DNA of 64,000 nucleotides from a bacterium. Lineage in GTDB: Bacteria > Patescibacteriota > Minisyncoccia > Phycocordibacterales > UBA2100. The notes beneath the pieces were generated by a model, which did no database searches, had not been told where the DNA came from, and worked only from the letters and a program-made list of their open reading frames with translations. The stretch covers positions 15,654-79,653 of the forward strand of contig JAUSGQ010000006.1 in assembly GCA_030674455.1 (NCBI GenBank), in the 5' to 3' direction. Positions 9,422 through 62,673 of the stretch are shown here, one piece after another; within the stretch, counting starts at the first letter, position 1; each line of letters opens with the position of its first letter. The position numbers and the translations under genes are program-made.

Positions 9422-9683
9422 CAATACGCCGTTACGCTATTTCACTTACATTCTCGAATGTGCCGACAAGACGCTCTACGTCGGATGCACGAATAATCTT
9501 GAGAAAAGATTGCGCGAACACAATGGCGCGAAAAACGGCGCGCACTACACCAAAATCCGCCGGCCGGTGATTCTGAAACATTCCGAGAAATTTCGCTCGC
9601 TCGCAAAAGCGCGGGCTCGCGAAGCAGAGATTAAGCGGTGGACGCGAAAACAAAAAATTGCTTTTCTGCGCAAGAATTCTTGA
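9402..9683 (+). CDS. GIY-YIG domain protein (UPF0213-like small nuclease)
   Basis: YFTYILECADKTLYVGCTNNLEKRLREHN matches the GIY-YIG core. Confidence 0.75.
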   Translation: MRLSKNNNTPLRYFTYILECADKTLYVGCTNNLEKRLREHNGAKNGAHYTKIRRPVILKHSEKFRSLAKARAREAEIKRWTRKQKIAFLRKNS

Positions 9684-9687
9684 AATA

Positions 9688-23700: not shown

Positions 23701-24887
23701 CGGACCTAGTGTTCGGAACATGGAATGGAACCGACTATGAGACCTTGCCGACAACAGTAGACACGGTAAACAACACCTTGACGGTAACCATCTCGCACTT
23801 CTCCAGTTTCGCTCCGTTGGTGCAGGGTAATGTCGCAGTGGCAGCCGCTGCGGCTGCAACTACGGCCACGGTTAGTCCCGGCGGCGGGGGAGTCATGGGA
23901 GGAGGCGGGGCTACGAACATTCCGAAAGCACGCGCTCAAATTATTTATCCTGATGGACGCATCGCCTACGTAGACCAGATAGGAGGGGAATCTGCTCCTT
24001 CCGCGAGCGCAACTGCGGGAGCGAGTTCCGCATCTGCATCTTCGGCAGTCTCGGCCTCGGCCAAGTTCACCGCGCTTTTGAAACAGGGCTCCAAGGGTTC
24101 GGATGTTAAGCGACTCCAGAAACTTCTTGGTGTTGAGGAAACGGGATTCTTCGGCGCGCTTACGCGCGCCGCAGTTGAGCAATTCCAAATAAAGTATGGA
24201 ATTGCAAAGAAAGGACAAGCTGGTTTTGGAACTCTTGGACCCAAGACAAGAGCTAAAATCGCAGAGGCATTTAGTTCGACAGCAGCGGCTAGCTCCCCGC
24301 AGGCAGGCACTGCGGCTCCCGAAATCGGTTCGCTTGCGATACTTGCCGGAGGCCAGTTTGTTCGTTCGCTCAATCTTCGCGCGAAGGGAAGCGACGTGCG
24401 TACTCTTCAACAAATTTTGAACAGCGACCCAGACACGCGCGTCTCATCCGAAGGCGCAGGTTCTCCGGGCGGCGAAACGACTTTCTTTGGCGGCGCAACT
24501 CTGAAAGCCGTGCAGAAATTCCAAGTGAAGCATGATATCGCGAAGCCAGGCAATATCGGATACGGAAATGTCGGGCCGAAAACAAGGGCTAAGCTGAACG
24601 AACTCCTAAATGCATCAAGTTCCGGAGGTGTCTCCCTGCCTACCGGCCAGGCAGGCTCACCTTTAGGGGGAGGTGACTCCTCGGGAACATCTGCCTCCAC
24701 TGCCAACACAGCATCCGCATCTGCCGAAGCTTCAACCGCGGCAGCAGTAACCGCGACAACAACCCCGACGTCGTTAGTCGGGGCTCCGACCGAAAGCGTC
24801 GGAGCTGAAACTGCCGCAACGACCACTGCCGCGACAACAGTAGCGGCTACAGCAACTACCACCGCAACTTCCACAGCGAGCAATTAA
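17745..24887 (+). CDS. giant (2380 aa) secreted surface protein: Ig-like/Big and carboxypeptidase-regulatory-like repeats, C-terminal tandem peptidoglycan-binding domains
   Basis: Signal peptide. Repeated SPxNxxTGV Big-like modules and many VSGTVxD...G beta-sandwich repeats. Two PG_binding_1-like modules near the C-terminus (GSDVKRLQKLLGV...GFGTLGPKTRAKI; GSDVRTLQQIL...GYGNVGPKTRAKL) and a low-complexity Ala/Thr tail. In-frame Element B copy at about 24640-24700. Confidence 0.85.
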   Translation: MQKVHGFSARVFLTSSAILVAAILLSASMVSKADAAIGLDVTASLTTFNQTIKASSTPTAVIGLNLISVASPGVETLASTSIAFFGAGFATTTDLAPLGTATSSGVALYRDDASAGTQGAFDAFDDVVPLQSASWDVAGATTTLSFLTNETVPVNDTGNNAGNDYFIVIQTAGGAVNLHAFTANMYPGSIQWNASTPTATPIALSTNTVTIDTAAPTLDTSMSGPANGSTGVPVSTFIHLGFSENLDQTTLNPNNVTLTRGGNAVGTAIRPFPNGFDLVASSPPTYTASSRFAKADTVSTGFFQINGSNQIFPQGGYSAPTRGDIVYTQTDTFPPEVGVITNATLTSGTFAINNNPAFRPLQITKFASPTVAGYTGDGAVVGVGDLLVANTSAKPSNVRYNWHIVTTGQALNNAGLRLDGEDAAPTYATTTFARLLPAATSTIDASQLFTATTTLMAGDLVFAKVVRGGDNLNTYAWHLVTTAETNDTVTAAPPQGATGTTTALRLDGAAVAPTFAASSVVAVLGFAAQGVLDGAVAQDATVFSFGDIMFAKTTDNAANNGSYAFHLVSNGATGATSTSLRLDNSASNLTSSASYVITAGTGIKDSAGNALAATSTITFTTGSTGGTNTTPPAVQNSQPQAGNQSFAPNAPIKLIFSVAMEAGSTSGANSVTNTAVVKLSTSVNGTPTTQVTSGVTNSYDSTTNTLTIAHTSALTVSTDYVVQVTTAAKSSTGASFPMEYRLYFRTGTASDSTAPTILGVSPTNSSTGVSMSPVITAGFSKDMNPATLTTTTVKLVETLNNSNAVAGGVSYSPNSRSVNFVPSTPLTANTGYSFVIVGGASGVTDLSNNALASHSTTTFTTTATVDVIAPSVNFANADDFGIAITFSEPMKSGGGPNAADNVANYTLESPTGTSISLGGKTITYDSGSKTARITGLALQNGNGYKVTVALPVQDLASNAISIVGTPAGNLAFGTVQNSTATGGQLGPGGGTMNFSMQGMNPTRVSPESRSAGVTSNYKVEFLATTAIPIGGQIQLVFPSGFTITNASTTAAATSFCNADLNGPMPGVPSIATVTNDNSSGIITITTAASSTGASAFVCLDVTGVVNSAVPNSSGYTVDIKTRDTGDNNRAILETKTSSPFFLGQAGSRTLIANVFNDGNANGEKDANEGIADVRVFLFSPASGGNSTTTTATGVATFNSLSDGDYMLGLDPGSLASASSTVTFNSMPQPFMVSATNLTKNFIVSGGGSSVNISGTVTGPSGTAVDIFASSNNGFSRKTVTLSGGADDYSIPVSTNTIYNVGVGPAMPEAFFTPGAPPPPPPTFTFMPPPNITVTVATTSITGKDFSLTTASKTITGTVRDSTGAAVSNAGVFARPMSNSSGAEVGFGTGGQTNTSGSFTLNVVPGTYLVGVFKGGMPNVPDQQITVPSSGANTPASLAFSLGAGTSITISGTVKDDGGNAIPYAGVNARKVNSSSDTTSMGGGSQNFVGGPTDSNGAYTLYVDSGTWVVEAFAPGFGRLGQKTLSVTASLSGQDFSAQTLSIGTITGTTTKASVEQQGVMVRADGAAGSNMAVSDASGVYTLKVPAGTYNLTCFFPGVGESAPLTGVVAVVNETSYNNNCTLASPITITVNLTDGTNPITGAYIDVRDSNGRGNGTNVSATSSTLATYTVTVPPGTYTVRAGHPAYGTIGSTGNVSTTQTITYTTTAGATRAITGTVSDGSAGINGAWVSLTGTPTGQTNTINTGAQTDSTGAFTLNVPAGGYTIHANKGGYIASGADSTVTVAGAAVSVGTITLTASTQTISGTVTLDNVGVSGAYVDASAPGGGFAVSQTDSAGAYSLAVKNGTWTVRAHAMGYEGGPTTVTVAGNSPTQGIALTAITGFVSKPEHQETVTPTSGGYLTNSDIGDKFKMSIPANALGTGSNAVTVKTQAYTTLPNPSSGSVLAKNGLSFSAVDSSGQPIKTLNSPITIVIPYTEADIPTGKTEADLVFGTWNGTDYETLPTTVDTVNNTLTVTISHFSSFAPLVQGNVAVAAAAAATTATVSPGGGGVMGGGGATNIPKARAQIIYPDGRIAYVDQIGGESAPSASATAGASSASASSAVSASAKFTALLKQGSKGSDVKRLQKLLGVEETGFFGALTRAAVEQFQIKYGIAKKGQAGFGTLGPKTRAKIAEAFSSTAAASSPQAGTAAPEIGSLAILAGGQFVRSLNLRAKGSDVRTLQQILNSDPDTRVSSEGAGSPGGETTFFGGATLKAVQKFQVKHDIAKPGNIGYGNVGPKTRAKLNELLNASSSGGVSLPTGQAGSPLGGGDSSGTSASTANTASASAEASTAAAVTATTTPTSLVGAPTESVGAETAATTTAATTVAATATTTATSTASN

Positions 24888-24955: not shown

Positions 24956-25060
24956 CCTCAGGCATAGCCGGAGGTGACTCCTTGTCCGCATCCCGCACAA
25001 AGAAATTCCCGAGGTGACTCCTTGGCATTTGCAAGGTGTCTCCTCGAGAATTCTTGAAAT
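24956..25060. repeat. cluster of Element B (GAGGTGACTCC / GGAGTCACCTC) palindromic repeats
   Basis: CCGGAGGTGACTCC and CCCGAGGTGACTCCTTGGCATTTGCAAGGTGTCTCCTCGAGAATTC. Related copies at 31281-31345, 34761-34830, 48381-48430 and 7-53. Confidence 0.6.
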
Positions 25061-25074
25061 GGTAGAATAACGGG

Positions 25075-25692
25075 ATGGATATCTTTTCACACGGGCTTTG
25101 GGCAGGTGCGGCAGCGAAAGCCGCAAACAAAATAAGTTCCCGAGGTGACTCCCTGCCTGCCTCTGGCAGGCTCACCGAAGGGGGAGGCGACTCCTCACGT
25201 AGGGAGGTGTCGCCTCCATGCAGCTCAAAACTAAACGTCTGGCACGCGGCCGCGTGGGGAGTGTTTCCGGATTTGTTTGCGTTCACTCCGGCATTCATCG
25301 GCCTCTTTTGGTTACTCGCCACAGGCCAGATGAGTTTATCAGAGTGGCCGGGTCGGCATGGCGGCGAGCCCTCACCGGGCGACTCGCTTCCCGTATTTCA
25401 ACTCGCTGGCCAGCTCTACAATTTCAGCCACAGCATTTTTGTGTTTGCGATCGTGTTTTGCATTGTGTGGTTCATGCGAAAAAAGCCAGTGCTTGAAATG
25501 GGCGGCTGGCTTCTCCACATCATCATGGATATCCCGACGCATTCATACGCGTTCTATCCGACGCCCGTCTTCTGGCCGCTCTTTGGATGGAAATTCAACG
25601 GCATTCAGTGGGCGCAGCCGTGGTTTTTGATTCTCGATTACGGCTTATTGATTTTGGTGTATTGGTTGTTGAGGGAGAAGAAAATCAAATAA
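25075..25692 (+). CDS. membrane protein, possibly DUF457/YdjM-like metal-dependent hydrolase; N-terminal region carries in-frame repeat elements
   Basis: N-terminal MDIFSHGLWAGAAA, hydrophobic helices, HIIMDIPTHSYAF. Residues 20-60 are encoded by Element A/B copies at 25141-25215. Confidence 0.4.
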   Translation: MDIFSHGLWAGAAAKAANKISSRGDSLPASGRLTEGGGDSSRREVSPPCSSKLNVWHAAAWGVFPDLFAFTPAFIGLFWLLATGQMSLSEWPGRHGGEPSPGDSLPVFQLAGQLYNFSHSIFVFAIVFCIVWFMRKKPVLEMGGWLLHIIMDIPTHSYAFYPTPVFWPLFGWKFNGIQWAQPWFLILDYGLLILVYWLLREKKIK

Positions 25693-26136: not shown

Positions 26137-26165
26137 TTGACAAGTGGGTGCAAATAATATATAAT
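26137..26165 (+). promoter_or_regulatory. perfect consensus sigma70 promoter TTGACA-N17-TATAAT driving the sortase gene
   Basis: Exact consensus hexamers. The ATG lies 10 nt after the -10, so the transcript is near-leaderless. Confidence 0.6.
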
Positions 26166-26175
26166 TTCGACCGCT

Positions 26176-26934
26176 ATGGAAATCGAGAATACGCCCATTT
26201 TGAGTCATAAAAAGCCTGCCTGCGTTGCGAACGCGACAGGCAGGCCGCCCACGGCCGTCTTTTTGGCTACCGCCTTTGTCATATTCGTTCTTACTCTTTC
26301 GGCGGCGGATTCTATTGGATTCGTTCCAAATTATATTGATGGTTCGACCGAGGAAAGCGCGGCAGAACCTGCGGACTTCCTGCCACTCGCATCTCTCCCA
26401 CAGCTCGGCGGTCTGCCGTCCATTGAATCGATTACCGCGGAAATTGCCGAACCGGTCGCACTTCCTAATCGTATCGTAATTCCTGCAATAAAAATGGACC
26501 TTCCAATCCAAAACCCATCGACAAAAGACATCAATAAGCTTACCGAAGTTCTTAAAGCTGGCCCCGCTCGATATGTGGACTCCGCGCAACTGGGTGAGAA
26601 AGGGAACATGCTTGTATTCGGACACAGCTCACAGTTGCCGGTTGTTAAAAATCAGATGTACAAGGCGTTCAATAATATTTCAAAACTAAAACAGGGCGAC
26701 ACTATTACGGTATATGGCGGGCCGTCTACAGGTGCCGCCACAACCAGCGGTGGACATGCGTATCTCTATAGCGTGGTCAGCGTGCGGGAAGGGGATGCGA
26801 ATGAAGATGTAATCGACCTCTCGAAAAATAAGGGTACGAGGATAACGCTTGTGACCTGCAACACGCTTGGCGAAAAAAGCGCGCGATGGATAGTGGAAGC
26901 CGAATTCGTTGGCGTTCTTCCTTCGTCAGATTAG
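26176..26934 (+). CDS. sortase-family transpeptidase (membrane-anchored)
   Basis: N-terminal TM anchor. Sortase beta-barrel with catalytic ITLVTCNTL (TLxTC) motif and an upstream conserved His region (LVFGHSSQ). Confidence 0.8.
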   Translation: MEIENTPILSHKKPACVANATGRPPTAVFLATAFVIFVLTLSAADSIGFVPNYIDGSTEESAAEPADFLPLASLPQLGGLPSIESITAEIAEPVALPNRIVIPAIKMDLPIQNPSTKDINKLTEVLKAGPARYVDSAQLGEKGNMLVFGHSSQLPVVKNQMYKAFNNISKLKQGDTITVYGGPSTGAATTSGGHAYLYSVVSVREGDANEDVIDLSKNKGTRITLVTCNTLGEKSARWIVEAEFVGVLPSSD

Positions 26935-30018: not shown

Positions 30019-30047
30019 TTGACAGATTAAAGTATTAAGAGTATAAT
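30019..30047 (+). promoter_or_regulatory. perfect consensus sigma70 promoter TTGACA-N17-TATAAT; leaderless transcript
   Basis: The -10 ends 8 nt before the ATG at 30056. Confidence 0.6.
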
Positions 30048-30055
30048 TAACTTAT

Positions 30056-31543
30056 ATGAAAACTATAAACACGTTTGTCGCGATAGCTTTATTTGCGTTT
30101 GGTGCGCCTTTTTTTGCGTTTGCCGATGATAACGTCGGTGACGGCAATGTAATTCCGCCTCCGGGTTATACGGATTATATTCCTACTCCCGGCTATACAG
30201 ACTACATTCCGACCCCGGGATACACGGATTATGTTCCATCGTACGGCTCTCAAGCCTACGATGTCTACGACGTTTACGGAACTTCTCCGACTTACGACTA
30301 CTACTCCACGTCTCCGAATTACTACGCTACCACTCCTAATTATTACTCTAGTCCAAGTTACTACAGTTCCACACCGACTTATTACCCGACGACTCCGGTA
30401 TATTCGTCTCCGGGTGTAGCTGCAGCTCCTATTTACTCTTACTCGCCTACGAATACGACAATAACAGAGACCACTTCAACTTGGGCTCCTTCGGAAGTTT
30501 ACACTTACGCGCCGACCTCAACGTGGGCGCCGACAGAAATATATTCTCCGAGCGAAATTTACACTTACTCGCCTACGACAGTTTCCAATTACTCTCCAAC
30601 AAGTATCTACGCTCCGAACGACAGCCACGATTACGCCCCGACTACGGTTACCACAGACAGCCACAACTACACCGGTCCGGTTACCATCTCGGTAGTCTCG
30701 CAAGCCCCAGCGCAAAGCCCTGTGCAATACGTTTCGGGAGGCGGAACGTACTTCAACAACTCTCCTTCGTACAACAATTCTCCCTCGTACTACAACACGC
30801 CGAGCTACTTCCCGCCGGCGCCTGCGCCTTCTTGCAGAATCGTTGCCAGCGGTGGATACGGCTCCGGCTACGGTAACAATGCAGTTGTACTCTCTTGGAC
30901 TTCTTCGAATGCCAACAGCGGATACATCTCTCCGCTCGTAGGCACTGTCGCTCCTTCCGGCTCGACGACTGTTTACCCGAACGCCAATACTCTCTACACG
31001 CTCACGGTTTCGGGCAATGGCGGAACTTCTTCCTGCCAAACGTATGCCGGTTACAGCAACTATGTTGCTCCTGCCGCTCCGGTCTACACAGCTCCGGTTG
31101 CGCAAGCGGCCGCAGTAGCTCCGTATGTCGCCCTCACGCAGATTCCTTACACGGGATTTGACTTCGGCACCTTCGGCAACGCCATGTACTGGCTCGTGCT
31201 TGCGGGATTCGCTGTCGCCGCTTCCTACCTTGTACTCTACTTCCGCGGTGGCGCATTCGCGCTCGTCGGCTCGATGTTGCGAGGAAAGAATTCTCGAGGA
31301 GACACCTCCCCCTTGGGGGTGAGGAGTCACCTCGGAAATGCCGGAAAGACCGCTGAATTCGCGACGTCACGAGTTTCCGAGGAGACACCTTCCCTGCCCG
31401 CCGAAGCTTCAGCGCAGGCAGGCAAAAGCGAAGGAGTCACCTCGAACCTCGGAACTTCTGCCCGTGGCACGAATGATTCAATGATTTCCGTCGGTTCAGT
31501 AGAGGGCGGAATGGGTCCGCGCATCGTAGTACTCCGCGCTTAA
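30056..31543 (+). CDS. secreted Ser/Thr/Tyr/Pro-rich repeat surface protein with C-terminal IPYTG-TM-basic tail (candidate sortase substrate)
   Basis: Signal peptide. PTPGYTDYIPTPGYTDYIPTPGYTDYVP repeats. A Cys-bracketed LSWTSSNANSG domain like those in the 2619-4082 protein. IPYTG at 31142-31156 followed by a hydrophobic helix and RGG...R. The cytoplasmic tail is extended by Element A/B insertions. Confidence 0.7.
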   Translation: MKTINTFVAIALFAFGAPFFAFADDNVGDGNVIPPPGYTDYIPTPGYTDYIPTPGYTDYVPSYGSQAYDVYDVYGTSPTYDYYSTSPNYYATTPNYYSSPSYYSSTPTYYPTTPVYSSPGVAAAPIYSYSPTNTTITETTSTWAPSEVYTYAPTSTWAPTEIYSPSEIYTYSPTTVSNYSPTSIYAPNDSHDYAPTTVTTDSHNYTGPVTISVVSQAPAQSPVQYVSGGGTYFNNSPSYNNSPSYYNTPSYFPPAPAPSCRIVASGGYGSGYGNNAVVLSWTSSNANSGYISPLVGTVAPSGSTTVYPNANTLYTLTVSGNGGTSSCQTYAGYSNYVAPAAPVYTAPVAQAAAVAPYVALTQIPYTGFDFGTFGNAMYWLVLAGFAVAASYLVLYFRGGAFALVGSMLRGKNSRGDTSPLGVRSHLGNAGKTAEFATSRVSEETPSLPAEASAQAGKSEGVTSNLGTSARGTNDSMISVGSVEGGMGPRIVVLRA

Positions 31544-32267: not shown

Positions 32268-34118
32268 TTACAAAGCGCGCGATGAAATTTCCTGTTTGAG
32301 TTTATTTATAATTTCCTCAACGGAAAGAGCACCAATTTTTCCTTTGCTTCTGCTTTCCAGCGTCGCCGTTTTTGATTTTATTTCTGCATCGCCGACAACT
32401 AGCGTGTAGGGGACTTTCTCCAGTTTTGCATTCCGTATGCGTTTACCCAAGGTATCGTTCGAATCATCGAGCTCGACTCGGATGGCCGCGTCTCGAAGTT
32501 GTGTAAAAATCTCTTTCGCATAACTCGCCTGCTTTTCAGATATCGGAATGATTTTTGCCTGTACAGGCGCGAGCCAAAGAGGGAAGGCGCCCGCAAAGTG
32601 CTCTATTAGGAATCCTATTAGCCGCTCGTGCGTACTAAGCGGAGCGCGATGGATGCACAAAGGCGTTTTTTGTTTGCCATCTTTGTCGGTGTAAACGAGG
32701 CCGAAGCGGGCGGGAACTGCAAAATCAACCTGATTGGTCGCAAGCGTGAACTCGCGGCCGATAGCGCTCCATATCTCTACATCTATCTTCGGACCATAGA
32801 ACGCCGCCTCGTCCTCGGCCTCCGTGAATGGGACATTGAGCTCCGTGAGGCATCGCCGCACCATTTCCTCCGTCTTGAGCCAAAGCTTCGGCTCATTGAT
32901 GTATTTCTTTCCGAGATTCTCCGGCGCGTGCCGAGATAGGCGCATCACGTATTTTTGTATTCCGAATATCTTGAAGTAGGAGAGGTAAAGCTCCGTGACT
33001 TTCCGGAACTCGTCGGCGAATTGTTCCTCGCTGCAGTAGATGTGCGCGTCGTTCATCTGCATCGAGCGCACGCGCATGAGGCCGAAGAGCTCGCCGGATT
33101 TTTCATAGCGGTAGCACGTGCCGTACTCCGCGAGGCGCACGGGCATGTCGCGCCAGCTTTTTGGGCGCGCCGCGAATATCTTGTGATGATGCGGGCAGTT
33201 CATCGCTTTCAAATAGTAGTTCACGCCCTCGCACTTCATCGGCGGGTACATGCTGTCTTTGTAATAGGGGAGGTGGCCGCTCGTCGTGTATAGGCTTTCC
33301 TTGGCGATGTGCGGCGTACGGACGCGAAGATAACCGCTCTTATCCTCCATTTCTTTCGCGAGTTTTTCCAACTCGTCTATCATGGCAGCGCCGTTGGGAA
33401 GCCACAGCGGAAGTCCCGGACCGACATCATCATCAAACGTGAAGATACCAAGCACGGTCCCGAGCTTGCGATGGTCGCGCTTCTCGGCTTCCTCGCGCGC
33501 TTCCAAAAATGTTTGGAGCTCCTCTTTTGAAGCAAAAGCGAGGCCGTAGATCCGCGTGAGCATCTTGTTCTTTTCGTCGCCGCGCCAGTAGGCGCCCGCG
33601 ATGCGGTCGAGTTTGAAGGAATCAGGCGCAATATCGCGTGACGGGTTTTCCGCATGGCCACCGCGGCACAGGTCGGTAAAGCTATGTGCATCCGAAGATG
33701 TACCCTTTAAAGATTTCTTGTAGCTCGCAGGCGGGCACGTGTAGAAAGTTATTTTTGTTCCGGCTTTCTGCAAGTCTTTTATCAGCTCAAGCTTGTACGG
33801 ATTGCCTTTGAAATACGCGCTCGCGCTGCGCGCCGAAACCTCTTCTCTATCAAAACCGGTCCACGCGCGGAGCATCTCGCGCATCGTCTTTTCCAGCTTA
33901 GGCAGATCCTGCGTGCTCGGCGCTTCGCCTTTAGGAAATTCAAAATCGTAGTAAAAGCCGTCGTCTATCGCGGGTCCGATAGAGGGTTTTGCTTTCGGGT
34001 AGTGCTTCTTTACTGCGGCGGCAAGCAGGTGCGCGAGGGTGTGCCGTACGTTCCCAATGTTGTCGGCCAACCCATTAGAAATCGGTGGTGCATCTTTAGG
34101 ATCGGAGTGTTTGCTCAT
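32268..34118 (-). CDS. thrS: threonyl-tRNA synthetase
   Basis: Class II aaRS core (RDHRKLG, GLPLWLPNG), editing-domain remnant with HxxxH, and a C-terminal anticodon-binding domain. Confidence 0.9.
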   Translation of the reverse strand: MSKHSDPKDAPPISNGLADNIGNVRHTLAHLLAAAVKKHYPKAKPSIGPAIDDGFYYDFEFPKGEAPSTQDLPKLEKTMREMLRAWTGFDREEVSARSASAYFKGNPYKLELIKDLQKAGTKITFYTCPPASYKKSLKGTSSDAHSFTDLCRGGHAENPSRDIAPDSFKLDRIAGAYWRGDEKNKMLTRIYGLAFASKEELQTFLEAREEAEKRDHRKLGTVLGIFTFDDDVGPGLPLWLPNGAAMIDELEKLAKEMEDKSGYLRVRTPHIAKESLYTTSGHLPYYKDSMYPPMKCEGVNYYLKAMNCPHHHKIFAARPKSWRDMPVRLAEYGTCYRYEKSGELFGLMRVRSMQMNDAHIYCSEEQFADEFRKVTELYLSYFKIFGIQKYVMRLSRHAPENLGKKYINEPKLWLKTEEMVRRCLTELNVPFTEAEDEAAFYGPKIDVEIWSAIGREFTLATNQVDFAVPARFGLVYTDKDGKQKTPLCIHRAPLSTHERLIGFLIEHFAGAFPLWLAPVQAKIIPISEKQASYAKEIFTQLRDAAIRVELDDSNDTLGKRIRNAKLEKVPYTLVVGDAEIKSKTATLESRSKGKIGALSVEEIINKLKQEISSRAL

Positions 34119-34213
34119 ATTTTCTTATCTGTCGGCAATCTGATGATTTTGTAATTTTCGCATTTCTAACGGGGCAAGTATTTTTAAACAGAATAACGTA
34201 CCTAGGCTATTTC

Positions 34214-41790: not shown

Positions 41791-41855
41791 TACACGATAA
41801 ATCATTAAATCATTCCTGCTTGCGATATATATTTGGTACAATGAGATTCAATGTA

Positions 41856-42082
41856 TCCCGTTAGAAGTTACGGAAGGTCTGATAAGCAAATATCCGCGGA
41901 ATGTTTTGCATTGGTCGATTATTTACCAGGAACGAACAACGAGACGGAAGCGCAAGCTTCCTACCTGCCCGCCAAAGCCAGAGCGGGGCAAATGGCATGA
42001 AGACAAACGCAAAGTATTTATTAGTTAATCAAGTTCGCCACGACCGTCGCTTCAGGCGATGGCAGGCGGGCTTCTAACGGGA
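41856..42082 (+). mobile_element. 227-bp non-coding TIR element (MITE-like) inserted in the SMC-like gene start codon; TIR TCCCGTTAGAAG, TSD TGTA
   Basis: Left end TCCCGTTAGAAG (41856-41867). Right end CTTCTAACGGGA (42071-42082). TGTA occurs at 41852-41855 and 42083-42086. The final A of the element plus the TSD TG rebuilds ATG at 42082. Confidence 0.7.
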
Positions 42083-44358
42083 TGTACCTAAAGTCCATTG
42101 AGCTTACGGGGTTCAAATCGTTCGGCAAAAAGACCGACATAGTTTTTGCTTCCCGCATTTCTTCTATCGTGGGTCCGAATGGTTCCGGAAAATCAAATGT
42201 CGCGGAAGCATTCAGATTCGTGCTCGGAGAACAATCAATGAAATCACTGCGCTCCAAGCGCGGGGAGGATTTGATATGGGGAGGGTCGCCGACACTGCCG
42301 AGGAGCAATAGAGCCGGCGTGAAAGTCGTTTTTGATAATTCCCTGCCTGCCGCGCAGGGCACGGCGCAGGCAGGCACGCGGCTTTTGGATTTGGATTTTA
42401 ACGAGGTCGCCGTTGAACGAATCGTGTATCGCGACGGCGAGAACGAGTATCTATTGAATGGAACCAAGGTGCGCCTCAAGGACGTCATCCGTTTGCTCGC
42501 GGGCGCCAACATCGGCGGCTCCGGATACCAGATAATTTCACAGGGAGAAGCCGACAGGATCCTGAATGCGAGTCCTCGCGAGCGCAGAGAGATGGTGGAA
42601 GATGCTCTCGGTCTCAAGCTCTACCAGCACAAAAAAGCCGAGAGCGAGCGAAAGCTCGAGGAGACGGCATCAAATATTGATAAAACAAAATCGCTCCGGC
42701 GCGAGATAACCCCGCATCTGAATTTCTTGCGCTCTCAAGTCCAGAAAATCGAGAAAGCGCGGGAGATGAAGGAGATGCTCGCGGCAAAACTTTCCGAATA
42801 TCTTGCGCGTGAACACGCGTGGATAACTTCGGAAGACAAGCGGCTTAGTGCGGAAGAGCGTTCGCAGGAAACAGAATTAAAGACTCTTGGAAATCGAGCC
42901 AATGAGGCGCGGGGAAAGCGCCCGAGCCAAAGCGCCGGCGTTCTGCAGGAACTGAAGGGAAAGATAATTGAGCGCGAGCAAAAACTTAGTGAGGCCCGGC
43001 GCGAGAGCGAGAAACTCACACGCGAACTCGGGCGGGCCGAAGGCGTTGCAGAAGCCAATACGGTGATGGTGGAGCAAATCGTCGCCGTGCCGCATGTGAG
43101 GCAGTTTGCCCGCGAGGTTAGCGAGGCGATTTCGGAAGCTTTGCGCAACGACGACATGCCTTCCGTGCGCGTGCTTCTTTTGCACATTAAGGACCGCATT
43201 CAATCATTCGTCGACGGTCTTTCCGGTTCGGCGCCGGATACGAAAGAAGAATCGCAGCAACAGGTGAAAGCAATCGCGAATTCTTTGGAGCGCGTCCAAA
43301 AAGAGGAAACGGCGCTCGCGCAGGAGCTGGAGGCATTGCGAGCGCAAATTACACAGGTGCGCGATGCCGGTTTTGCGGCGGAGCGCGATTTAATCGAACT
43401 TGAATCTGCTGTGCGCGAAGCGCAGGGAAAGCTCGGTTCTGTGCAAAACGCGCGCATGACCATAGCGACTTTGCGCCAGGCATTTGAGGACGAAGTGCGC
43501 GAAGGCATCGCTCTCGTCGGTGCCGCTATCCATGATTGGGAAAAGCCCCTCCGCCAGCCGGCGGATGGCGGAGCGGGGGATGAGGTGCTTACTGGCGACG
43601 ACCGCCCCGCGCAGGAAAAAAGGCGGCGGGAGATCGAGCGGTTGAAAATAAAGATAGAGGAATCTGGAATTGGAAACGGCGATGCGGTCGTGCGCGAGTT
43701 CAATCAGACCAGAGAACGCGACGAATTTCTCGGACGCGAGCTTGTAGACCTTGAGCGCTCCGCGGCGTCGCTCAAAGATATTATTGTGGAACTGGAGAAG
43801 ACTATTGATGCCAAATTTACGGAAGGCCTCAAATTGATAAACGCCACGCTCGGCGATTTCTTTATGAAATTGTTCGGCGGAGGCGCAGCCAAGCTGGAAG
43901 TGGAGGAACCCCGCCTTCGCCGAGGCTCCGGCGGGCAAAGCCCGAAAAGCGATGAGGACTTAATGGATGAGGAGGAAGAAATGACCGAGGAAGAGGAATT
44001 GTACGCGGGACTTTCTATCTCGGTCCATCTTCCGCGCAAAAAAGTTCACGGGCTTGAAGTACTTTCCGGAGGCGAGCGCGCGCTCACTTCTATCGCGCTT
44101 ATATTCTCGATGTCGCAGGTTAATCCTCCGCCGTTCTTGGTTTTGGACGAAACAGATGCCGCTCTTGATGAGGCCAACAGCAAGCGATACGCAGATATGA
44201 TTCGCGAGCTTGGCTCCAAAAGCCAGCTTATCGTTATCACGCACAACCGCTCGACAATGGCCGCGGCAGGAGAACTTTATGGAGTTACGATGGGGAACGA
44301 CGGGGTCTCGAAAATGTTGTCCGTTAAATTGGAAGAGGCCGAAAAGGTTGCAAAATAA
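42082..44358 (+). CDS. SMC-family chromosome-segregation ATPase (short, 758 aa; hinge not recognised)
   Basis: N-terminal Walker A GPNGSGKSN, long coiled-coil, C-terminal LSGGERALTSIALIF and Walker B LVLDETDAALDEAN. Confidence 0.75.
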   Translation: MYLKSIELTGFKSFGKKTDIVFASRISSIVGPNGSGKSNVAEAFRFVLGEQSMKSLRSKRGEDLIWGGSPTLPRSNRAGVKVVFDNSLPAAQGTAQAGTRLLDLDFNEVAVERIVYRDGENEYLLNGTKVRLKDVIRLLAGANIGGSGYQIISQGEADRILNASPRERREMVEDALGLKLYQHKKAESERKLEETASNIDKTKSLRREITPHLNFLRSQVQKIEKAREMKEMLAAKLSEYLAREHAWITSEDKRLSAEERSQETELKTLGNRANEARGKRPSQSAGVLQELKGKIIEREQKLSEARRESEKLTRELGRAEGVAEANTVMVEQIVAVPHVRQFAREVSEAISEALRNDDMPSVRVLLLHIKDRIQSFVDGLSGSAPDTKEESQQQVKAIANSLERVQKEETALAQELEALRAQITQVRDAGFAAERDLIELESAVREAQGKLGSVQNARMTIATLRQAFEDEVREGIALVGAAIHDWEKPLRQPADGGAGDEVLTGDDRPAQEKRRREIERLKIKIEESGIGNGDAVVREFNQTRERDEFLGRELVDLERSAASLKDIIVELEKTIDAKFTEGLKLINATLGDFFMKLFGGGAAKLEVEEPRLRRGSGGQSPKSDEDLMDEEEEMTEEEELYAGLSISVHLPRKKVHGLEVLSGGERALTSIALIFSMSQVNPPPFLVLDETDAALDEANSKRYADMIRELGSKSQLIVITHNRSTMAAAGELYGVTMGNDGVSKMLSVKLEEAEKVAK

Positions 44359-44514: not shown

Positions 44515-44621
44515 GTCGCGACCCCATTAGAAATGTTCATTTTATGGGGTGTCCAAGTACACAGATTCATTCTGCCATTCAATAATTTAGCCAGAGCAAT
44601 TTTTAATTTCTAACGGGGTAT

Positions 44622-51991: not shown

Positions 51992-52123
51992 AGATTAATA
52001 TTTATTTCTAACGCAAGGAGTAAAAGTATACTCCTTATAATTGGTCCTGTCTTTGAATTAATGTTTGACAAACCTTCTTAGAATAGTAAAGTCGCAAAAA
52101 GAACTTCACATCGCCATCATGGA

Positions 52124-52350
52124 TCCCGTTAGAAGTCGCGAAAGTCTGGAATATGGTACATTCAATATATGTTTCTAATTTGTCGTTTGCTTACGAACAC
52201 TAACTTTTGAGTCGGAAGCGCAAGCTTTCTACCTGCCCGCCAAAGCCAGAGCCGAGCGAGTAATATGAAAACAAACATGAGACATTATCAGCTAATCAAG
52301 TTCATTGCTACCGTCGCTTTCAGGCGATGGCAGGCGGGCTTCTAACGGGA
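52124..52350 (+). mobile_element. 227-bp non-coding TIR element (MITE-like) inserted in the inositol-monophosphatase start codon; TSD TGGA
   Basis: Ends TCCCGTTAGAAG (52124-52135) and CTTCTAACGGGA (52339-52350). TGGA at 52120-52123 and 52351-52354. ATG rebuilt at 52350. Same length as the copy at 41856-42082, with conserved blocks. Confidence 0.7.
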
Positions 52351-53117
52351 TGGACACATTCATAAAGAAAATAACAAAAGAAGCAGGCAAGGCCGTTTTG
52401 AAGCGGTTCGGGAAAGACGGTGTTCACTACTCAAAATCAAAGCATGCCTACGATGTCGTTACCAAAGCGGATCTTCTTTCGGAGAAAATAATTATTTCCG
52501 CGATTCGGAAATATTATCCCGCACACAGCATTCTTTCCGAAGAAGAGGGAGAGATAAACGCCGGTTCGGACTATCGATGGATAATAGACCCCGTGGACGG
52601 CACTATGAATTTTGCCTCGTCTGTGCCGATGTTCGGCGTAATGGTTTGTCTGGTGTATAAAAATACCGTTAAGCTCTCTGCGATATATCTTCCGGTGACG
52701 GACGAATTATTTTTTGCGAAAGCGGGGAGGGGGGCATATTTAAACGGCAAGCGAATATATTGCTCGCAGACGAAAAGTCTTGATACGAGTACCGGCTGCG
52801 GTTTTGTCGGTTCACGAAAACGGACATTGCACTTCGTTAAGAAATTGCTCGGCGTCGTGCGCGGGGAAGGATTGTTTCTCAACTCATTCGGATGCATTTC
52901 CATGAATTCATGCTATGTAGCGTGCGGAAGAAAGGACTGGGCCGTGTCGCTCTATGGAGCTGTACACGACTTTGCGCCGACCTATCTCATTCTCAAAGAA
53001 GCGGGATGCAAGGTTACAAATTGCAAAGGCAAGTCGTGGAAAATCGGCGATAACGAAGCGGTTGCGGCCAATGAGACCTTGCATCGGCAACTGTTGAAGC
53101 TTACAAAAGACGTCTAA
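52350..53117 (+). CDS. inositol monophosphatase family protein (SuhB/ImpA-like)
   Basis: WIIDPVDGTMNF metal-binding motif. Start at the ATG regenerated by the element; the track ORF at 52305 begins inside the element. Confidence 0.8.
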   Translation: MDTFIKKITKEAGKAVLKRFGKDGVHYSKSKHAYDVVTKADLLSEKIIISAIRKYYPAHSILSEEEGEINAGSDYRWIIDPVDGTMNFASSVPMFGVMVCLVYKNTVKLSAIYLPVTDELFFAKAGRGAYLNGKRIYCSQTKSLDTSTGCGFVGSRKRTLHFVKKLLGVVRGEGLFLNSFGCISMNSCYVACGRKDWAVSLYGAVHDFAPTYLILKEAGCKVTNCKGKSWKIGDNEAVAANETLHRQLLKLTKDV

Positions 53118-53160
53118 TTATCATGGCGGGGGTAGGACAGAGCGTGGTACAATCTCGTCC

Positions 53161-55440
53161 ATGCCCGGTAGTATGGTAGAAAAAATGTTGCGTTGGACAG
53201 CGCTTGCAGGGATTTTTGCGCTCCCATTTATTGTTTTCATAGTAGCGAATTCACTCTTCTTTCCGTACATCACGGGAAAGAACTTCGCGTTTAGGATAAT
53301 CGTAGAAATTATTACCGCTTCGTGGCTGGCGCTTGCTCTCATTAATCCTGCATATCGTCCTAAGAAGACGTGGCTTCTTGCCGCCTTCGCGGCATTTGTT
53401 GCGATTATTGCCGTCGCGGATGCTACTGGCGTCAATCCGTTCAAGAGTTTTTGGAGCAATTACGAGCGCATGGACGGATGGGTGACTCTTGCGCACCTCT
53501 TCGCCTACTTTGTCGTTGCGGGCTCAATTCTTGGGGCGAAGAAACTCTGGAGAAGATTTTGGCTTTTATCTCTTGGCGTGTCCGTCATTTCCGTTTTTAT
53601 GGGAGTGAAACAGTTTATCGGGATTTCAGCCTCGGCGAGCGGGCTCACGGCGCGATTGGATTCAACTTTCGGCAATCCGATTTATTTGGCTGTCTTCATG
53701 CTCTTCAATATTTTTATAGCGGCGTTTTTGTGGGCAGAAAGCTGGCGCGAGCGCCAGCCGGGTAAGCGCCTTGGAATTTCGTTGGCATACGGAGGCATTA
53801 TCGCGCTCGACACCATCATTCTTCTCTTGACCGGAACGCGCGGGACAATACTCGGCCTGGTGGGCGGAGCGATTCTCGCTTTTCTTATCTACGCTTTTCT
53901 AAATCAAGGGCAGAGTTCTACCCGCCTGCGCGTAATTGCCGTCGGGTCTATCGCCGCGATTGTCATTGCGGGTGGAAGCTTATGGCTTGCACGAGATACG
54001 GCGTTCGTGAACCGAGTTGGATTCCTCGGCCGGCTTGCGTCCATTTCGCTCCAGGATAACACCACTAAATCTCGTTTTATGAACTGGGGTATGGCATGGG
54101 AGGGAGTAAAAGAACGCCCGCTTCTCGGATGGGGGCAGGAAAATTACGCGATTGTTTTTGATAATTACTATAACCCCGGAATGTACGCTCAGGAACAGTG
54201 GTTTGACCGCGTACACAACATAATTTTCGACTGGCTTGTTGCCGGCGGGTTTCTTGGCCTCATTAGTTACCTCCTGCTATTTATATCCGCTCTTTGGATT
54301 ATTTGGAGAGGCGGTGGCGCTTCCGTGCCAATACAGGCTGGACGTCAAAAAGAAAAGAATGCCGCAAACAGCACAGTAGTTTTTTCTTTCGCCGAGCAAT
54401 GTATTTTGACCGGCCTTCTTGCGGGGTACTTTTTCCATAATCTTTTCGTTTTTGATAACATTTCCAGCTATATTTTGTTCACGACTATCCTCGCTTACAT
54501 CGCTTCGCGCTACGCGGCTGTCCGCAATGCGCCGACCCTGCTTCCCATGGGGAGCCTTCCGCGCGCGGCGACACCAATTGTTGCGGTTGCGGCCATAGTT
54601 TTGGCAGTGGGGTCTGCTTGGGGAGTAAACAACCGCGCGCTCGCGCAAAATCGCGCGCTCTTGCAGGCAATCGCTCCGCATCAGGAGGGAATCACTGTAA
54701 ATCTCAAATACTTTCAAGAGGCGGTAGCTTATCAAAGCCTTGGAACGCAAGAAGCGCGCGAACAGCTTGCTCAAGTGGCTTCGCAAATTGCAGGTAACCA
54801 GCAGATGCCGGATGATGTTAAACAAAAATTCGGCTCTTTGGCTGCAAACGAGATGATTCTTCAGGAAAAAGCTTCGCCGCTGGATGCCCGTTTTCCGCTC
54901 TTTTTGGGAATTGTATATAAGGCATACGGAGATTATGAAAATGCAGGAAAAGCATTCGCGCGCGCACATGAACTTTCGCGGGGCAAACAATCAATACTTT
55001 TCGAGATGGGCGCGAACGCTCAATCACTTGGCAAGAACGATGAAGCAATTCAGGACTTCAAAGAAGCGTTTGAACTTTTGCCGGAGTATAATAGCGCGCG
55101 CGTCTACTACGCCGCCGCACTGATTCGCGCGAAGCAAGAGTCGCTCGCGGAGGAGATACTGGCCCCCGCCGTGGAATCGGGCGCTGCCGCAGACCCGAAT
55201 ATTGCATCTGCATATGTTTCAATAGGACGCTACGACAAGATAGTGGAGATTTGGCGCGCACGCGTAAAAGCAATGCCGAACGACATGCAGGCCAGATTTA
55301 CTCTTGCGGCAGCACTGTATCAGGTGGGTAATCCTTTGCAGGCAATAGCAGTTCTTGAGGAAGTTAAGACTATAGACCCAAGCACCAAAGCTCAGGCAGA
55401 AGAATTTATCAAGCAGATAAAAAGCGGGTCGGGAATCTAA
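53161..55440 (+). CDS. O-antigen ligase/Wzy_C-like polytopic membrane protein with C-terminal TPR repeats
   Basis: About 12 TM helices with a large periplasmic loop typical of the O-antigen ligase fold, then TPR-like repeats (YKAYGDYENAGKAFARAHEL...). Confidence 0.6.
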   Translation: MPGSMVEKMLRWTALAGIFALPFIVFIVANSLFFPYITGKNFAFRIIVEIITASWLALALINPAYRPKKTWLLAAFAAFVAIIAVADATGVNPFKSFWSNYERMDGWVTLAHLFAYFVVAGSILGAKKLWRRFWLLSLGVSVISVFMGVKQFIGISASASGLTARLDSTFGNPIYLAVFMLFNIFIAAFLWAESWRERQPGKRLGISLAYGGIIALDTIILLLTGTRGTILGLVGGAILAFLIYAFLNQGQSSTRLRVIAVGSIAAIVIAGGSLWLARDTAFVNRVGFLGRLASISLQDNTTKSRFMNWGMAWEGVKERPLLGWGQENYAIVFDNYYNPGMYAQEQWFDRVHNIIFDWLVAGGFLGLISYLLLFISALWIIWRGGGASVPIQAGRQKEKNAANSTVVFSFAEQCILTGLLAGYFFHNLFVFDNISSYILFTTILAYIASRYAAVRNAPTLLPMGSLPRAATPIVAVAAIVLAVGSAWGVNNRALAQNRALLQAIAPHQEGITVNLKYFQEAVAYQSLGTQEAREQLAQVASQIAGNQQMPDDVKQKFGSLAANEMILQEKASPLDARFPLFLGIVYKAYGDYENAGKAFARAHELSRGKQSILFEMGANAQSLGKNDEAIQDFKEAFELLPEYNSARVYYAAALIRAKQESLAEEILAPAVESGAAADPNIASAYVSIGRYDKIVEIWRARVKAMPNDMQARFTLAAALYQVGNPLQAIAVLEEVKTIDPSTKAQAEEFIKQIKSGSGI

Positions 55441-61528: not shown

Positions 61529-61647
61529 GATATCTCGGTATCTGCGAGAATCTGCGGGAATTTCCTGCGAGAATCTGCGTCTAGAGTAATCCACAGGTAG
61601 GCCCCAGGAGGACATCATAAGGGAATATCTGGTATATAATAAAATGC

Positions 61648-62673
61648 ATGTCAGACGAACTAACAATCGACTCGCAGACTTTTATCTCGTCTAAACGAGC
61701 ATCGGAGTTAAGCGGATATGAGCAGGATTACATAGGCCAGCTTTGTCGTGGAGGTAGCATAACTGCGCGCAGAGTGGGTGGGCTTTGGTATGTGTCGGAA
61801 GAATCTCTTATGAGCTATAAAAAGGGTGCCGCGCAGTATAAGCCGGAGCCACCGCTAAATACCGGCGAGATAGCTCGACCGGATTCATTGGTTTCTTTTG
61901 ACGGCAGGGGTTATATCTCAACATCCCGCGCGGCGAAAATTACCGGATACACACCAGATTATGTGGGACAAATGGCCAGAGCCGGCATTATCCCGTCACG
62001 GCAGGTAGGAAATCGATGGTATGTCGAGCAATCGGGCATATTGAGGCACAAGGAGAGTAAGGACGCCCTATTAGCGGCCGTACAGGTTCAATCTGTTGGT
62101 ATTACGAATCAGAAAGCCACGGAAGTTGAGAGTGATATGGCCGTGGCACCATTACTGAAGTATGTCAGCGATAATCGCGAACTCCTCCCATCTATGGGCG
62201 AATCAGCAGACCGTCTACAGGTGCCGACCATAGACCGGTCGGCCCGTCTACAGGCGAATCAGCAGACTTCGTGGCTCGGCCTGCCGATGCCTACCCCATC
62301 GGCCTTCGTGGCTAGGCCTGCCGATATCAGATCTCCTGAAGCGGAGATGGCAAACGAGGAGGTTGCAGAGCAGGAACATGTCATCCCGATACGGATACAT
62401 CATAATAGCCGAAATATTGCTAAGAATAAGGCCTTTTTTAAGCCAGTGGCTGTAATACCAAGAAAGTCCTTATTGCCGATGTTGTTGCCGGTTGGAATGT
62501 TCACGATAGTGATTGTCCTTTCGCTTGGATTCGTTTCTCTGAAAAGGTCATCCACCTATACAAGCCGCGGAACAGCCCAATTGGCGAGCGTAGGCATGAA
62601 CTTCGTAGGAAAAGTCGGAGATTCCCTTGAGAACTGGTTCATACCTGAAATCGTTTACCAAAGGACCAATTAA
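61648..62673 (+). CDS. membrane protein with two N-terminal excisionase/MerR-type HTH repeats (...GxWYV)
   Basis: ISSKRASELSGYEQDYIGQLCRGGSITARRVGGLWYV and ISTSRAAKITGYTPDYVGQMARAGIIPSRQVGNRWYV. C-terminal TM helix. In-frame Element C copy at 62221-62265. Confidence 0.5.
   Translation: MSDELTIDSQTFISSKRASELSGYEQDYIGQLCRGGSITARRVGGLWYVSEESLMSYKKGAAQYKPEPPLNTGEIARPDSLVSFDGRGYISTSRAAKITGYTPDYVGQMARAGIIPSRQVGNRWYVEQSGILRHKESKDALLAAVQVQSVGITNQKATEVESDMAVAPLLKYVSDNRELLPSMGESADRLQVPTIDRSARLQANQQTSWLGLPMPTPSAFVARPADIRSPEAEMANEEVAEQEHVIPIRIHHNSRNIAKNKAFFKPVAVIPRKSLLPMLLPVGMFTIVIVLSLGFVSLKRSSTYTSRGTAQLASVGMNFVGKVGDSLENWFIPEIVYQRTN

Follow-up and report, generated by a model that had tools for sequence, protein, structure and literature searches.

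A family of start-codon mini-elements in Patescibacteria and a 281-bp form that encodes only a GIY-YIG nuclease

How does the same short sequence come to lie exactly across the start codons of two unrelated genes, and how can those genes be translated behind it? The question is raised by a stretch of 64,000 nucleotides from contig JAUSGQ010000006.1 of a bacterium of the Patescibacteriota, referred to below as the window, in which two 227-bp elements are found at the starts of an SMC-like gene and an IMPase (SuhB-like) gene. Coordinates are positions in the window, and L-numbers denote related loci fetched from public collections. We consider the two elements to be members of a mini-element family of Patescibacteria, resembling MITEs (miniature inverted-repeat transposable elements), whose 281-bp parent encodes a GIY-YIG nuclease and which acts in the way proposed below; we give this reading a probability of about four in five. 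The GIY-YIG start-codon element seems to represent a mobile element of a new kind. Full-text literature searches, in which subscription journals were mostly missing, found nothing of the sort described, and a prior description is therefore possible.

The main features of the two copies can be read directly from the sequence and are as the first-pass annotation gave them. Each runs from a T to an A, carries perfect 12-bp terminal inverted repeats (5' arm TCCCGTTAGAAG, 3' arm CTTCTAACGGGA), and is flanked by a different 4-bp duplication, TGTA at the SMC-like gene and TGGA at the IMPase gene. The insertion falls between the A and the TG of the host start codon, with duplication of 4 bp of the form TGNN, and the terminal A of each copy is the A of the SMC or IMPase ATG that is rebuilt at its right edge. 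In a search of the whole window, the exact arm 12-mer was found at just these four positions. The two loci are composed as follows.

41834-41842, forward strand: extended -10 element TGgTACAAT of the SMC unit, read in the sequence, its layout kept in the orthologue L085
41851-41855, forward strand: old SMC ATG (41851-41853) and left TGTA (41852-41855); the ATG now opens a non-conserved upstream open reading frame (uORF) of 49 codons
41856-42082, forward strand: element copy 1, 227 bp, without a GIY-YIG open reading frame (ORF); 5' arm 41856-41867, left domain 41868-41963, core 41964-42070, 3' arm 42071-42082
41872-41876 with 41957-41961, forward strand: helix P2 of copy 1, which closes the left domain
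42082-44358, forward strand: SMC-like ORF of 758 codons (MYLKSIELTGFKSF), opened by the rebuilt ATG 42082-42084 and including the right TGTA (42083-42086); the orthologue L085 is filled at the same site
52065-52092, forward strand: promoter-like TTGACA-16-TAAAGT of the IMPase unit, 5' of element copy 2
52119-52123, forward strand: old IMPase ATG (52119-52121) and left TGGA (52120-52123); the ATG opens a 19-codon uORF
52124-52350, forward strand: element copy 2, 227 bp, without a GIY-YIG ORF; 5' arm 52124-52135, left domain 52136-52231, core 52232-52338, 3' arm 52339-52350
52350-53117, forward strand: IMPase (SuhB-like) ORF of 255 codons, opened by the rebuilt ATG 52350-52352 and including the right TGGA (52351-52354)

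The SMC -10 element ends 8 nt 5' of the old ATG and is not flagged by a simple two-hexamer promoter scan; the transcription unit is predicted to be leaderless or nearly leaderless. The two copies are 82% identical in an alignment that includes about 26 nt of flank on each side, with invariant blocks that alternate with barely alignable stretches. The conserved internal blocks pointed out earlier are indeed unchanged between the copies, but most of their length belongs to a separate 107-nt nested module (41964-42070 and 52232-52338). The coding content of the window copies consists of short non-conserved uORFs, with no GIY-YIG ORF. No Rfam family matched anywhere in the window at the gathering score, and at E<=10 the element gave two weak and unrelated matches (a plant microRNA precursor and a long non-coding RNA region), far below their gathering scores; since these scans of window and element held nothing relevant, identities as a group I intron, ribozyme or riboswitch were dropped. 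Gene callers lengthen the IMPase into the element, for example from TTG 52305, giving 267-273 aa rather than 255 (P0121-P0123, P0126), and database entries for host genes 3' of elements often carry false N-terminal extensions.

Copies are by no means confined to the window. A genome scan with one invariant 21-mer against one genome per species gave 33 loci, 31 of them in metagenome-assembled genomes (MAGs) of Patescibacteria, with up to seven loci in one MAG and with labels that include Kaiserbacteria, Taylorbacteria, 'Saccharibacteria' and Patescibacteria group. A metagenome scan with a two-block pattern added 55 further loci, mostly from groundwater, for a total of about 90 related loci, almost all in Patescibacteria; two scans of viral contigs found no element carried. 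The 682 kb of fetched DNA contain 101 distinct arm pairs, with stems of 12-14 bp and in a few cases 9-11 bp. On the strand with the conserved interior, the 3' arm is followed by an ATG and a long ORF with a normal N-terminus (e.g. Ddl MKSVAVIFGGRSVEH, GltX ...RFAPSPTG, SMC MYLKSIEL). The host genes are functionally unrelated, comprising SMC, IMPase, Ddl, GltX, ProB-like, HAD and glycosyltransferase genes, among others.

Duplications were tallied over the 56 arm pairs that have an ATG or GTG and an ORF of at least 60 codons 3' of them. A perfect 4/4 TGNN duplication with an upstream ATG is present in 33 of the 56, where chance would give 1/256 per pair, bearing out the expectation of further copies at start codons in many genomes. 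Another five pairs match at three of the four positions, and in 18 no more than two match, the upstream copy being decayed or absent. Decay is to be expected, because the upstream copy no longer starts anything conserved. Empty sites are also found: five IMPase orthologue loci, with four distinct sequences, read ATGGA(C/T), which is the sequence predicted from the window when the element and one TGGA are removed, and the native start reconstructed in the first-pass annotation as ATG/GA thus exists in relatives at 65-87% protein identity (L093 78%, L096 65%, L113 84%, L114/L115 87%). Filled orthologous sites are known from L055 and L012 for IMPase and from L085 for SMC. Tandem and nested copies occur among the related loci, and several start codons have been struck more than once (L031, L043, L081), in some cases by tandem duplication. 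Inverted repeats, duplications, copies at many loci, empty sites and an ORF-bearing relative with the same ends, described below, together uphold the proposal that the window copies are MITEs. Two loci are unusual. In the IMPase orthologue L094/L095 (86% identity) there are no arms, and a copy of the 107-nt module is present at 1334-1443; it stands 57 nt upstream of the ATG, between the GDH and IMPase genes as the window element does, and may be a remnant or an independent insertion. For a copy at the end of JAUYLR010000001.1 (L022), one flank is a long and perfect inverted repeat of the other, an arrangement that resembles a hairpin artefact of assembly at a contig end.

Longer elements with the same arms are found at L008, L044, L069 and L070. 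In the last three an ORF runs from the upstream ATG through the 5' arm, while L008 has the same interior and a 5' end that lies beyond the fetched stretch. The ORF encodes a GIY-YIG catalytic domain (Pfam PF01541, E=1e-16), and a protein search returned 1955 homologues, mostly 94-aa entries from Patescibacteria named 'GIY-YIG nuclease family protein'; some proteins annotated as 'excinuclease ABC subunit C' are also members of the element family. Among the best 120 of the 1955 homologues, the N-terminus is M-x-[PSTA]-V-R-[DEN] in 93, the C-terminus is FLSLTG in 91, and the length is exactly 94 aa in 86. Of the 96 proteins with the M-x-[PSTA]VR start, 89 have N, S or I as residue 2, which implies duplications TGAA, TGAG or TGAT, exactly those that provide a TGA stop. 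The full-length element is 281 bp long and coextensive with a single 94-codon ORF. At L089 the DNA reads ...caaaaATGAA / T CCC GTT AGA ... CTA ACG GGA / TGAAaaa, where slashes mark the element boundaries: the 5' arm encodes P-V-R (CCC GTT AGA, codons 3-5) and the 3' arm the final L-T-G (CTA ACG GGA). Codon 1 of the nuclease ORF is the host's old ATG, which at L089 also overlaps the stop of the upstream gene, and the TGA stop of the nuclease overlaps the rebuilt ATG of a downstream epimerase gene (ATGA). Nothing in this form provides a start codon, a promoter or a ribosome-binding site. The GIY-YIG ORF is seen between arms at L089, L097, L044 and L070, and ATGA overlaps and duplications are visible in the DNA of L089, L097 and L107.

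At L107 a copy with C...G ends occupies an ATGAA site, and the host start is now GTG. The first base of the rebuilt codon therefore belongs to the element, as had been supposed from the two window copies, and the duplication is of 4 bp. A 5-bp duplication with the terminal A taken from the target is ruled out by the same locus, and the P-nucleotide idea, in which the T before CCCG would copy the last duplicated base, is ruled out by sites that read TGAG/T and TGAT/T.

The nearest solved structures to the element nuclease are UPF0213 proteins (1zg2, E=2.5e-5), followed weakly by SLX1. These relatives are structure-specific nucleases, unlike the I-TevI-type homing enzymes, and the NCBIfam model for group I intron endonucleases gives 21 bits against a cut-off of 56. 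The 102 intact homologues, whose mean pairwise identity is 72%, keep the positions of catalytic type (Y, Y, R, H, E and N), which argues for selection on the nuclease protein. The window itself encodes a stand-alone, UPF0213-like GIY-YIG protein in a 94-codon ORF at 9402-9686 (forward strand), 37% identical to the element nuclease over 67 residues, with no arms and neither M-x-PVRD nor FLSLTG ends. It may be a paralogue with a cellular role, or an enzyme that serves ORF-less copies in trans.

Members of the family can be grouped into six length classes.

27 nt: hairpins, arms only
42-129 nt: hairpin elements with C...G ends
110-120 nt: 'mini' form, made up of the arms and a left domain
200-241 nt: the mini form with the core added
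275 nt, terminal bases excluded: the complete ORF
383 nt: the ORF with the core added

The window copies belong to the class of mini elements with a core, their length without the terminal T and A being 118 + 107 = 225 nt. The core (CCTGCCCGCCAAAGCCAGAGC ... GGCGATGGCAGGCGGG, 107 nt) is a separately inserted module nested in the element. At L043 two adjacent copies are identical save for the core and a nested 27-nt hairpin with CAAG repeat flanks, which only one of them has; with the sum of lengths above, this marks core and hairpin as separate inserts. The core junction GCTTCCTA/CCTGCC is common to ORF-bearing and ORF-less elements, and the ends of the core are nearly invariant across distant Patescibacteria with a variable interior between them. 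Other Patescibacteria carry the core without arms, sometimes between direct repeats of 9-11 bp and sometimes on the upstream side of a promoter instead of within a leader. It may represent another mobile module, or a helix to which a protein binds. Core loci are L007, L015, L017, L025, L032, L033, L048, L058, L066, L077 and L094; lone cores are sometimes near repeated ATACGAAT motifs. The ORF-less form is taken to derive from the ORF-bearing one on account of the shared arms, the shared junction and a pair of copies at L031, of a sister subfamily, where the first ~33 nt of an ORF-less copy recur in a neighbouring degenerate copy that bears the ORF. Internal deletion is documented in that pair and would by extension account for the window copies.

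The smallest hairpins have a distribution of their own. The nested 27-nt hairpin (CCCCGTTAGAAGCGGAGCTTCTAACGGGG) is found with CAAG repeat flanks in the GNRA loop of the larger element's GGAAGC-GCAA-GCTTCC hairpin (L004, L014, L043, L049, L060, L064, L065, L078, L079 and L087), a mobile element inside a mobile element. C...G hairpins of 27 nt and 57 nt are also present inside long ORFs of 299-355 codons (L027 4726-4753 and 6861-6888; L065 1073-1130), where with the 4-bp duplication they add exactly 33 or 63 nt, in frame, as PVRS(G/S)ASNG-like inserts.

Each window copy folds well below shuffled controls, with z about -4. Across 22 elements of the window-copy class, the terminal stem P1 is paired in 100% of cells, with compensatory change at two pairs and change just to G.U at four others. 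P2 (5' GGAAG / 3' CUUCC), which closes the left domain, has compensatory changes at 4/5 pairs, occurring as GGACG/CGUCC and GGGCG/CGCCC, and in window copy 2 as GAAAG/CUUUC. None of 500 shuffles matched the covariation score, which collapses in slid registers. The paired positions of the core helix are invariant and give no covariation signal either way; this helix runs straight on from P1 to form a rod of ~28 bp, and P1, P2 and the core helix bring the two ends of the element together. In 26 distinct arm pairs, the non-Watson-Crick positions on the host-gene strand are 27 G.U and 2 A.C, an excess of G.U from which the folded species is taken to be the host-gene strand, whether as RNA or as single-stranded DNA. 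A covarying fold at the same leader in distant taxa was named by the first-pass annotation as favouring a riboregulator over a mobile element. The fold does covary, but this does not overturn mobility, as the same fold precedes unrelated genes and not a single conserved leader.

Conservation in place was compared between the window and L085 (the SMC pair) and between the window and L055 (the IMPase pair).

Whole element: 85% identity in the SMC pair, 85% in the IMPase pair
Left domain without arm: 81% identity in the SMC pair, 87% in the IMPase pair
60 nt upstream of the old ATG: 45% identity in the SMC pair, 60% in the IMPase pair
Adjacent gene, synonymous third positions: unusable in the SMC pair (indels), 62% identity in the IMPase pair

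Because the elements exceed the upstream flanks, and in the IMPase pair the synonymous sites, in conservation between orthologous sites, ORF-less copies are judged to be under purifying selection in place, or to be undergoing homogenisation.

From these observations we propose the following mode of life. The UPF0213/SLX1-type nuclease would mobilise both full-length and ORF-less copies, probably by acting on a hairpin or cruciform formed by the arms. The full-length form would be expressed parasitically from the host promoter and initiation codon, often leaderless in this genome, and the ribosomes that terminate at its stop would reinitiate on the overlapping host ATG (ATGA), handing the host gene its ribosomes. 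Behind an ORF-less copy, the host gene would be transcribed through the element from the upstream promoter: a promoter scan found no promoter-like site inside either window copy, so host transcription must start upstream, and an internal promoter feeding the host gene was rejected, the 3' arm also being a poor match to a -10 box. The compact fold, short uORFs terminating at the 3' arm's TAA or TGA, or both, would keep the rebuilt ATG usable, which would explain the purifying selection on ORF-less copies. The 3' arm (TTCTAACGGGATGA) seems harmless in every reading frame, as a TAA 4 nt before the ATG ends one frame, a TGA overlapping the ATG ends another, and the third continues in frame into the host gene. 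At L027 (3899-4125, reverse strand) and L036, a 225-nt ORF-less element has no rebuilt ATG, and an upstream ATG reads through it in frame, so that a 614-codon membrane-protein ORF gains 78 N-terminal residues with the translated element. For the window copies, three candidate routes lead to the rebuilt AUG behind its 12-bp stem: the compact fold may put the AUG next to the 5' end, short uORFs may relay ribosomes to the arm TAA or TGA, or a host RNase may cut the rod of P1 and core helix. In copy 1 the old ATG's uORF terminates in an ATGA, and the second uORF that begins there runs as far as the arm TAA. More tentatively, and as something we would rate a little short of an even bet, the 281-bp unit may be an autonomous transposon, the smallest known and the first in prokaryotes to be driven by a GIY-YIG enzyme, one that actively seeks start codons, lives off the transcription and initiation signals of the host gene, hands translation back through a stop/start overlap, and leaves descendants kept harmless or useful by an RNA fold that joins their ends.

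Several points weigh against this reading. To our knowledge GIY-YIG enzymes cut by hydrolysis and are not known to carry out strand transfer, and a 4-bp duplication is typical of DDE transposases; both the nuclease activity and the transposition are predictions from sequence. Each identical nuclease protein was found at one locus only across many samples, with none shared between different loci as would be the sign of recent jumps; no recent jump has been caught, and the family's copies have an old appearance. In about a third of them no duplication or upstream ATG is recognisable, which we interpret as decay, and the duplication is occasionally 3 or 6 bp rather than 4. The window left domain shares with the nuclease ORF a collinear ACGGAAGCG block and the 3' junction, nothing more, and because their nucleotide similarity is not significant (p = 0.04-0.9), nucleotide homology between them was dropped. 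The uORF arrangement is not conserved between copies, and a conserved relay of uORFs is ruled out by its differences from copy to copy. Covariation cannot separate an RNA fold from a fold of one DNA strand. Finally, the rebuilt ATG abuts a 12-bp stem in a genome without Shine-Dalgarno sequences, a difficulty for host translation behind ORF-less copies.

Alternative explanations differ in how much of this evidence they can accommodate. The strongest concerns the start-codon position itself, which may reflect survivorship: the element would have little site preference, and copies of ~110-390 bp ending in A or G would be seen at start codons because anywhere else in a compact genome they would ruin a gene, and because imprecise deletion cannot remove them there. 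The C...G relatives point this way, as they have non-TG duplications (CAAG, CGCG, CGGG, TTCTTG) and occur in hairpin loops, between genes and, in frame, within long ORFs. Likewise the start-codon sites share ATG-R-A only, which is ordinary second-codon usage, a -10 box adjoins the ATG in just 17 of 44 sites, and the copies have the look of old ones. However, nearly all T...A-ended copies are at start codons although intergenic positions outnumber starts by ~100:1, the exceptions being L004 (3 nt before the ATG) and the in-frame L027 and L036; the ORF-bearing form lacks a start codon of its own and has a stop/start overlap that looks adapted to this niche; and the start codons of L031, L043 and L081 have been hit repeatedly, if in part through tandem duplication. 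We give pure survivorship a chance of about one in three, and consider real targeting of start codons somewhat more likely. Targeting of the open promoter complex of leaderless genes was considered and set aside, given a -10 box 4-9 nt upstream in 17 of 44 sites and some sites that are operon-internal ATGA overlaps. A different possibility, rated as unlikely, is removal at the RNA level, in which RNase III, another RNase or self-cleavage would cut the ~28-bp rod and free a host mRNA beginning at or close to the rebuilt AUG, as would suit an organism with leaderless translation. In its favour, no gap separates P1 from the core helix on which it stacks, Shine-Dalgarno sites are missing from the genome and many of its genes are leaderless, ORF-less copies are constrained in place, GIY-YIG ORFs are found in non-intron insertions of rRNA genes of the Candidate Phyla Radiation (CPR; PMC11270868), and RNase III is retained in CPR (PMC12641178). 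Against such removal, no ribozyme or intron family of Rfam matched even at E<=10, the 281-bp full-length form has P1 only, and the element at L027 and L036 is translated into host protein and hence is not removed there.

Targeted insertion by an element with its own nuclease is also preferred over a more conventional MITE, in which the arms would come from a DDE-type insertion sequence encoded elsewhere and the GIY-YIG ORF would be cargo or coincidence. A 4-bp duplication with inverted repeats of 12-13 bp is classic for DDE transposons, and GIY-YIG nucleases are not known to integrate DNA, but no transposase gene was seen beside any arm in the 682 kb of related loci, an arm-to-arm ORF, a layout present in ~90 of the best 120 homologues, leaves no room for any other gene, and stems that tolerate G.U together with covariation in the non-terminal P2 are unexpected for double-stranded repeats recognised by a protein; we find this origin improbable. 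Two further explanations have hardly any standing. A gene-specific, non-mobile cis-regulatory leader (riboswitch or protein-binding), with coincidental flanking repeats, would suit the stable fold (z about -4), the covariation in P1 and P2 and the conservation above synonymous sites. As the sole explanation it is refuted by the presence of the same sequence before dozens of functionally unrelated genes, by close orthologues without the element, by the 33 perfect 4-bp duplications, by nested and tandem copies, and by the existence of a protein-coding parent form, though individual copies may have been exapted as regulators. A self-splicing intron with a homing endonuclease, its ORF continuing the reading frame of the exon before it in the manner of organellar group I introns, is suggested by the GIY-YIG ORF in frame with the upstream ATG, by the U before CCCG and the G ending CGGG, and by a structured RNA with a GNRA hairpin. 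It is equally hard to credit, since neither Intron_gpI nor any other relevant Rfam model matched at E<=10, the full-length form is wholly coding, introns make no target duplications, the nuclease is of the UPF0213/SLX1 type without the DNA-binding domain of homing enzymes, and excision of CCCG...CGGG would leave a duplicated M-X.

Comparison with known systems places the family close to several of them. Prokaryotic MITEs such as Correia of Neisseria and MITEAba12 are, like the window copies, short, multi-copy and without coding capacity, with inverted repeats and a short duplication, and become part of host transcripts; indeed the window copies have every structural feature of a MITE. Known MITEs, however, derive from DDE insertion sequences and are intergenic with sequence-defined targets such as TA, whereas the Patescibacteria family has an ORF-bearing relative that encodes a GIY-YIG nuclease only, sits inside and rebuilds start codons, and has stems that tolerate G.U on one strand. 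Rickettsia palindromic elements resemble the 27-nt and 57-nt hairpins and L027 as palindromic mini-elements that survive in genes in a form compatible with translation, but have no known autonomous parent, start-codon niche or stop/start coupling. Free-standing GIY-YIG homing genes (phage T4 seg, I-TevI family) are also selfish nuclease genes wedged between host genes, often translationally linked to their neighbours; their enzymes have a C-terminal DNA-binding domain and are copied by repair into the cognate allele without inverted repeats or duplications, while the element encodes a bare 94-aa catalytic domain of UPF0213/SLX1 type and occupies many unrelated loci. REP/REPIN-RAYT and IS200/IS605 systems share very small hairpin elements, strand-specific folding and many non-autonomous hairpins per autonomous gene. 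They differ in that the RAYT/IS200/IS605 enzyme is an HUH (Y1) tyrosine transposase and not a GIY-YIG protein, that IS200/IS605 elements have subterminal hairpins and no target duplication in place of end-to-end pairing and duplications, and that REPINs are extragenic. In IStrons and in the rRNA intervening sequences excised by RNase III, as in this family, a terminal structure joins the ends and limits damage to the host gene. There the damage is limited at the RNA level, whereas the family has no ribozyme signature and its removal from RNA is hypothetical; damage limitation by the full-length form appears to be translational, through the borrowed ATG and the ATGA overlap. UPF0213 (YhbQ/BH0048) and SLX1 proteins share with the element nuclease its minimal GIY-YIG fold and its conserved residues (Y, Y, R, H, E, N), but are regarded as cellular repair proteins or proteins of unknown function, with no bounding inverted repeats and with ends under no constraint to encode such repeats. 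As for a DDE transposase, the only ORF between arms is the PF01541 GIY-YIG ORF, and no other ORF fits in 281 bp. The family therefore cannot be assigned to DDE insertion sequences, IS200/IS605-RAYT, homing endonuclease genes, group I introns or gene-specific leaders.

Two other sites of arm type are present in the window, and both differ in part from their first description:

44522-44618, forward strand: hairpin relative with C...G ends (CCCCATTAGAAAT...ATTTCTAACGGGG) that fills the rpsP leader
34071-34174, reverse strand: thrS arm pair, CCCCGTTAGAAAT (34174-34162) with ATTTCTAATGGG (34082-34071), a 12-bp stem with one G.U

The shorter relative in the rpsP leader does exist, but with the bounds given here, and it has one A.C mismatch and no flanking duplication and ends 3 nt 5' of the ATG at 44622. 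The thrS half-site, in contrast to its description as solitary, has a partner arm inside the thrS coding sequence (34071-34082). The stem surrounds the start codon (34118-34116) and the first 12 codons; the ThrS N-terminus may be partly derived from an element, or the stem may occlude initiation. With regard to the window as a whole, none of 34 likely genes in it is seen to be preceded by a Shine-Dalgarno sequence, and at many of them, with the SMC layout among these, a strong (TGn)TAnAAT -10 box ends 6-8 nt before the ATG (for example 25060-25077, 26150-26178, 30035-30058, 53140-53163 and 61625-61650). The source organism thus appears, from these signals, to use leaderless mRNAs widely. The largest ORF of the window has 2380 codons (17745-24887, forward strand).

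If the 94-residue nuclease does mobilise the element, it would represent a new enzyme class in prokaryotic transposition, and the lower size limit of an autonomous mobile element would fall to ~280 bp; IS200 is about 700 bp long. The architecture itself is a new parasitic strategy, in which the host promoter and start codon are borrowed and then rebuilt behind the element. For annotation, hundreds of Patescibacteria genes named 'GIY-YIG nuclease family' are on this reading mobile elements, and 'leaders' of 110-390 bp before housekeeping genes are relics of such elements, into which gene callers extend ORFs. The family may further offer a route to the study of translation initiation in CPR bacteria, which are poor in Shine-Dalgarno sequences and rich in leaderless genes, and in which essential genes work behind a structured insert of 227 nt.

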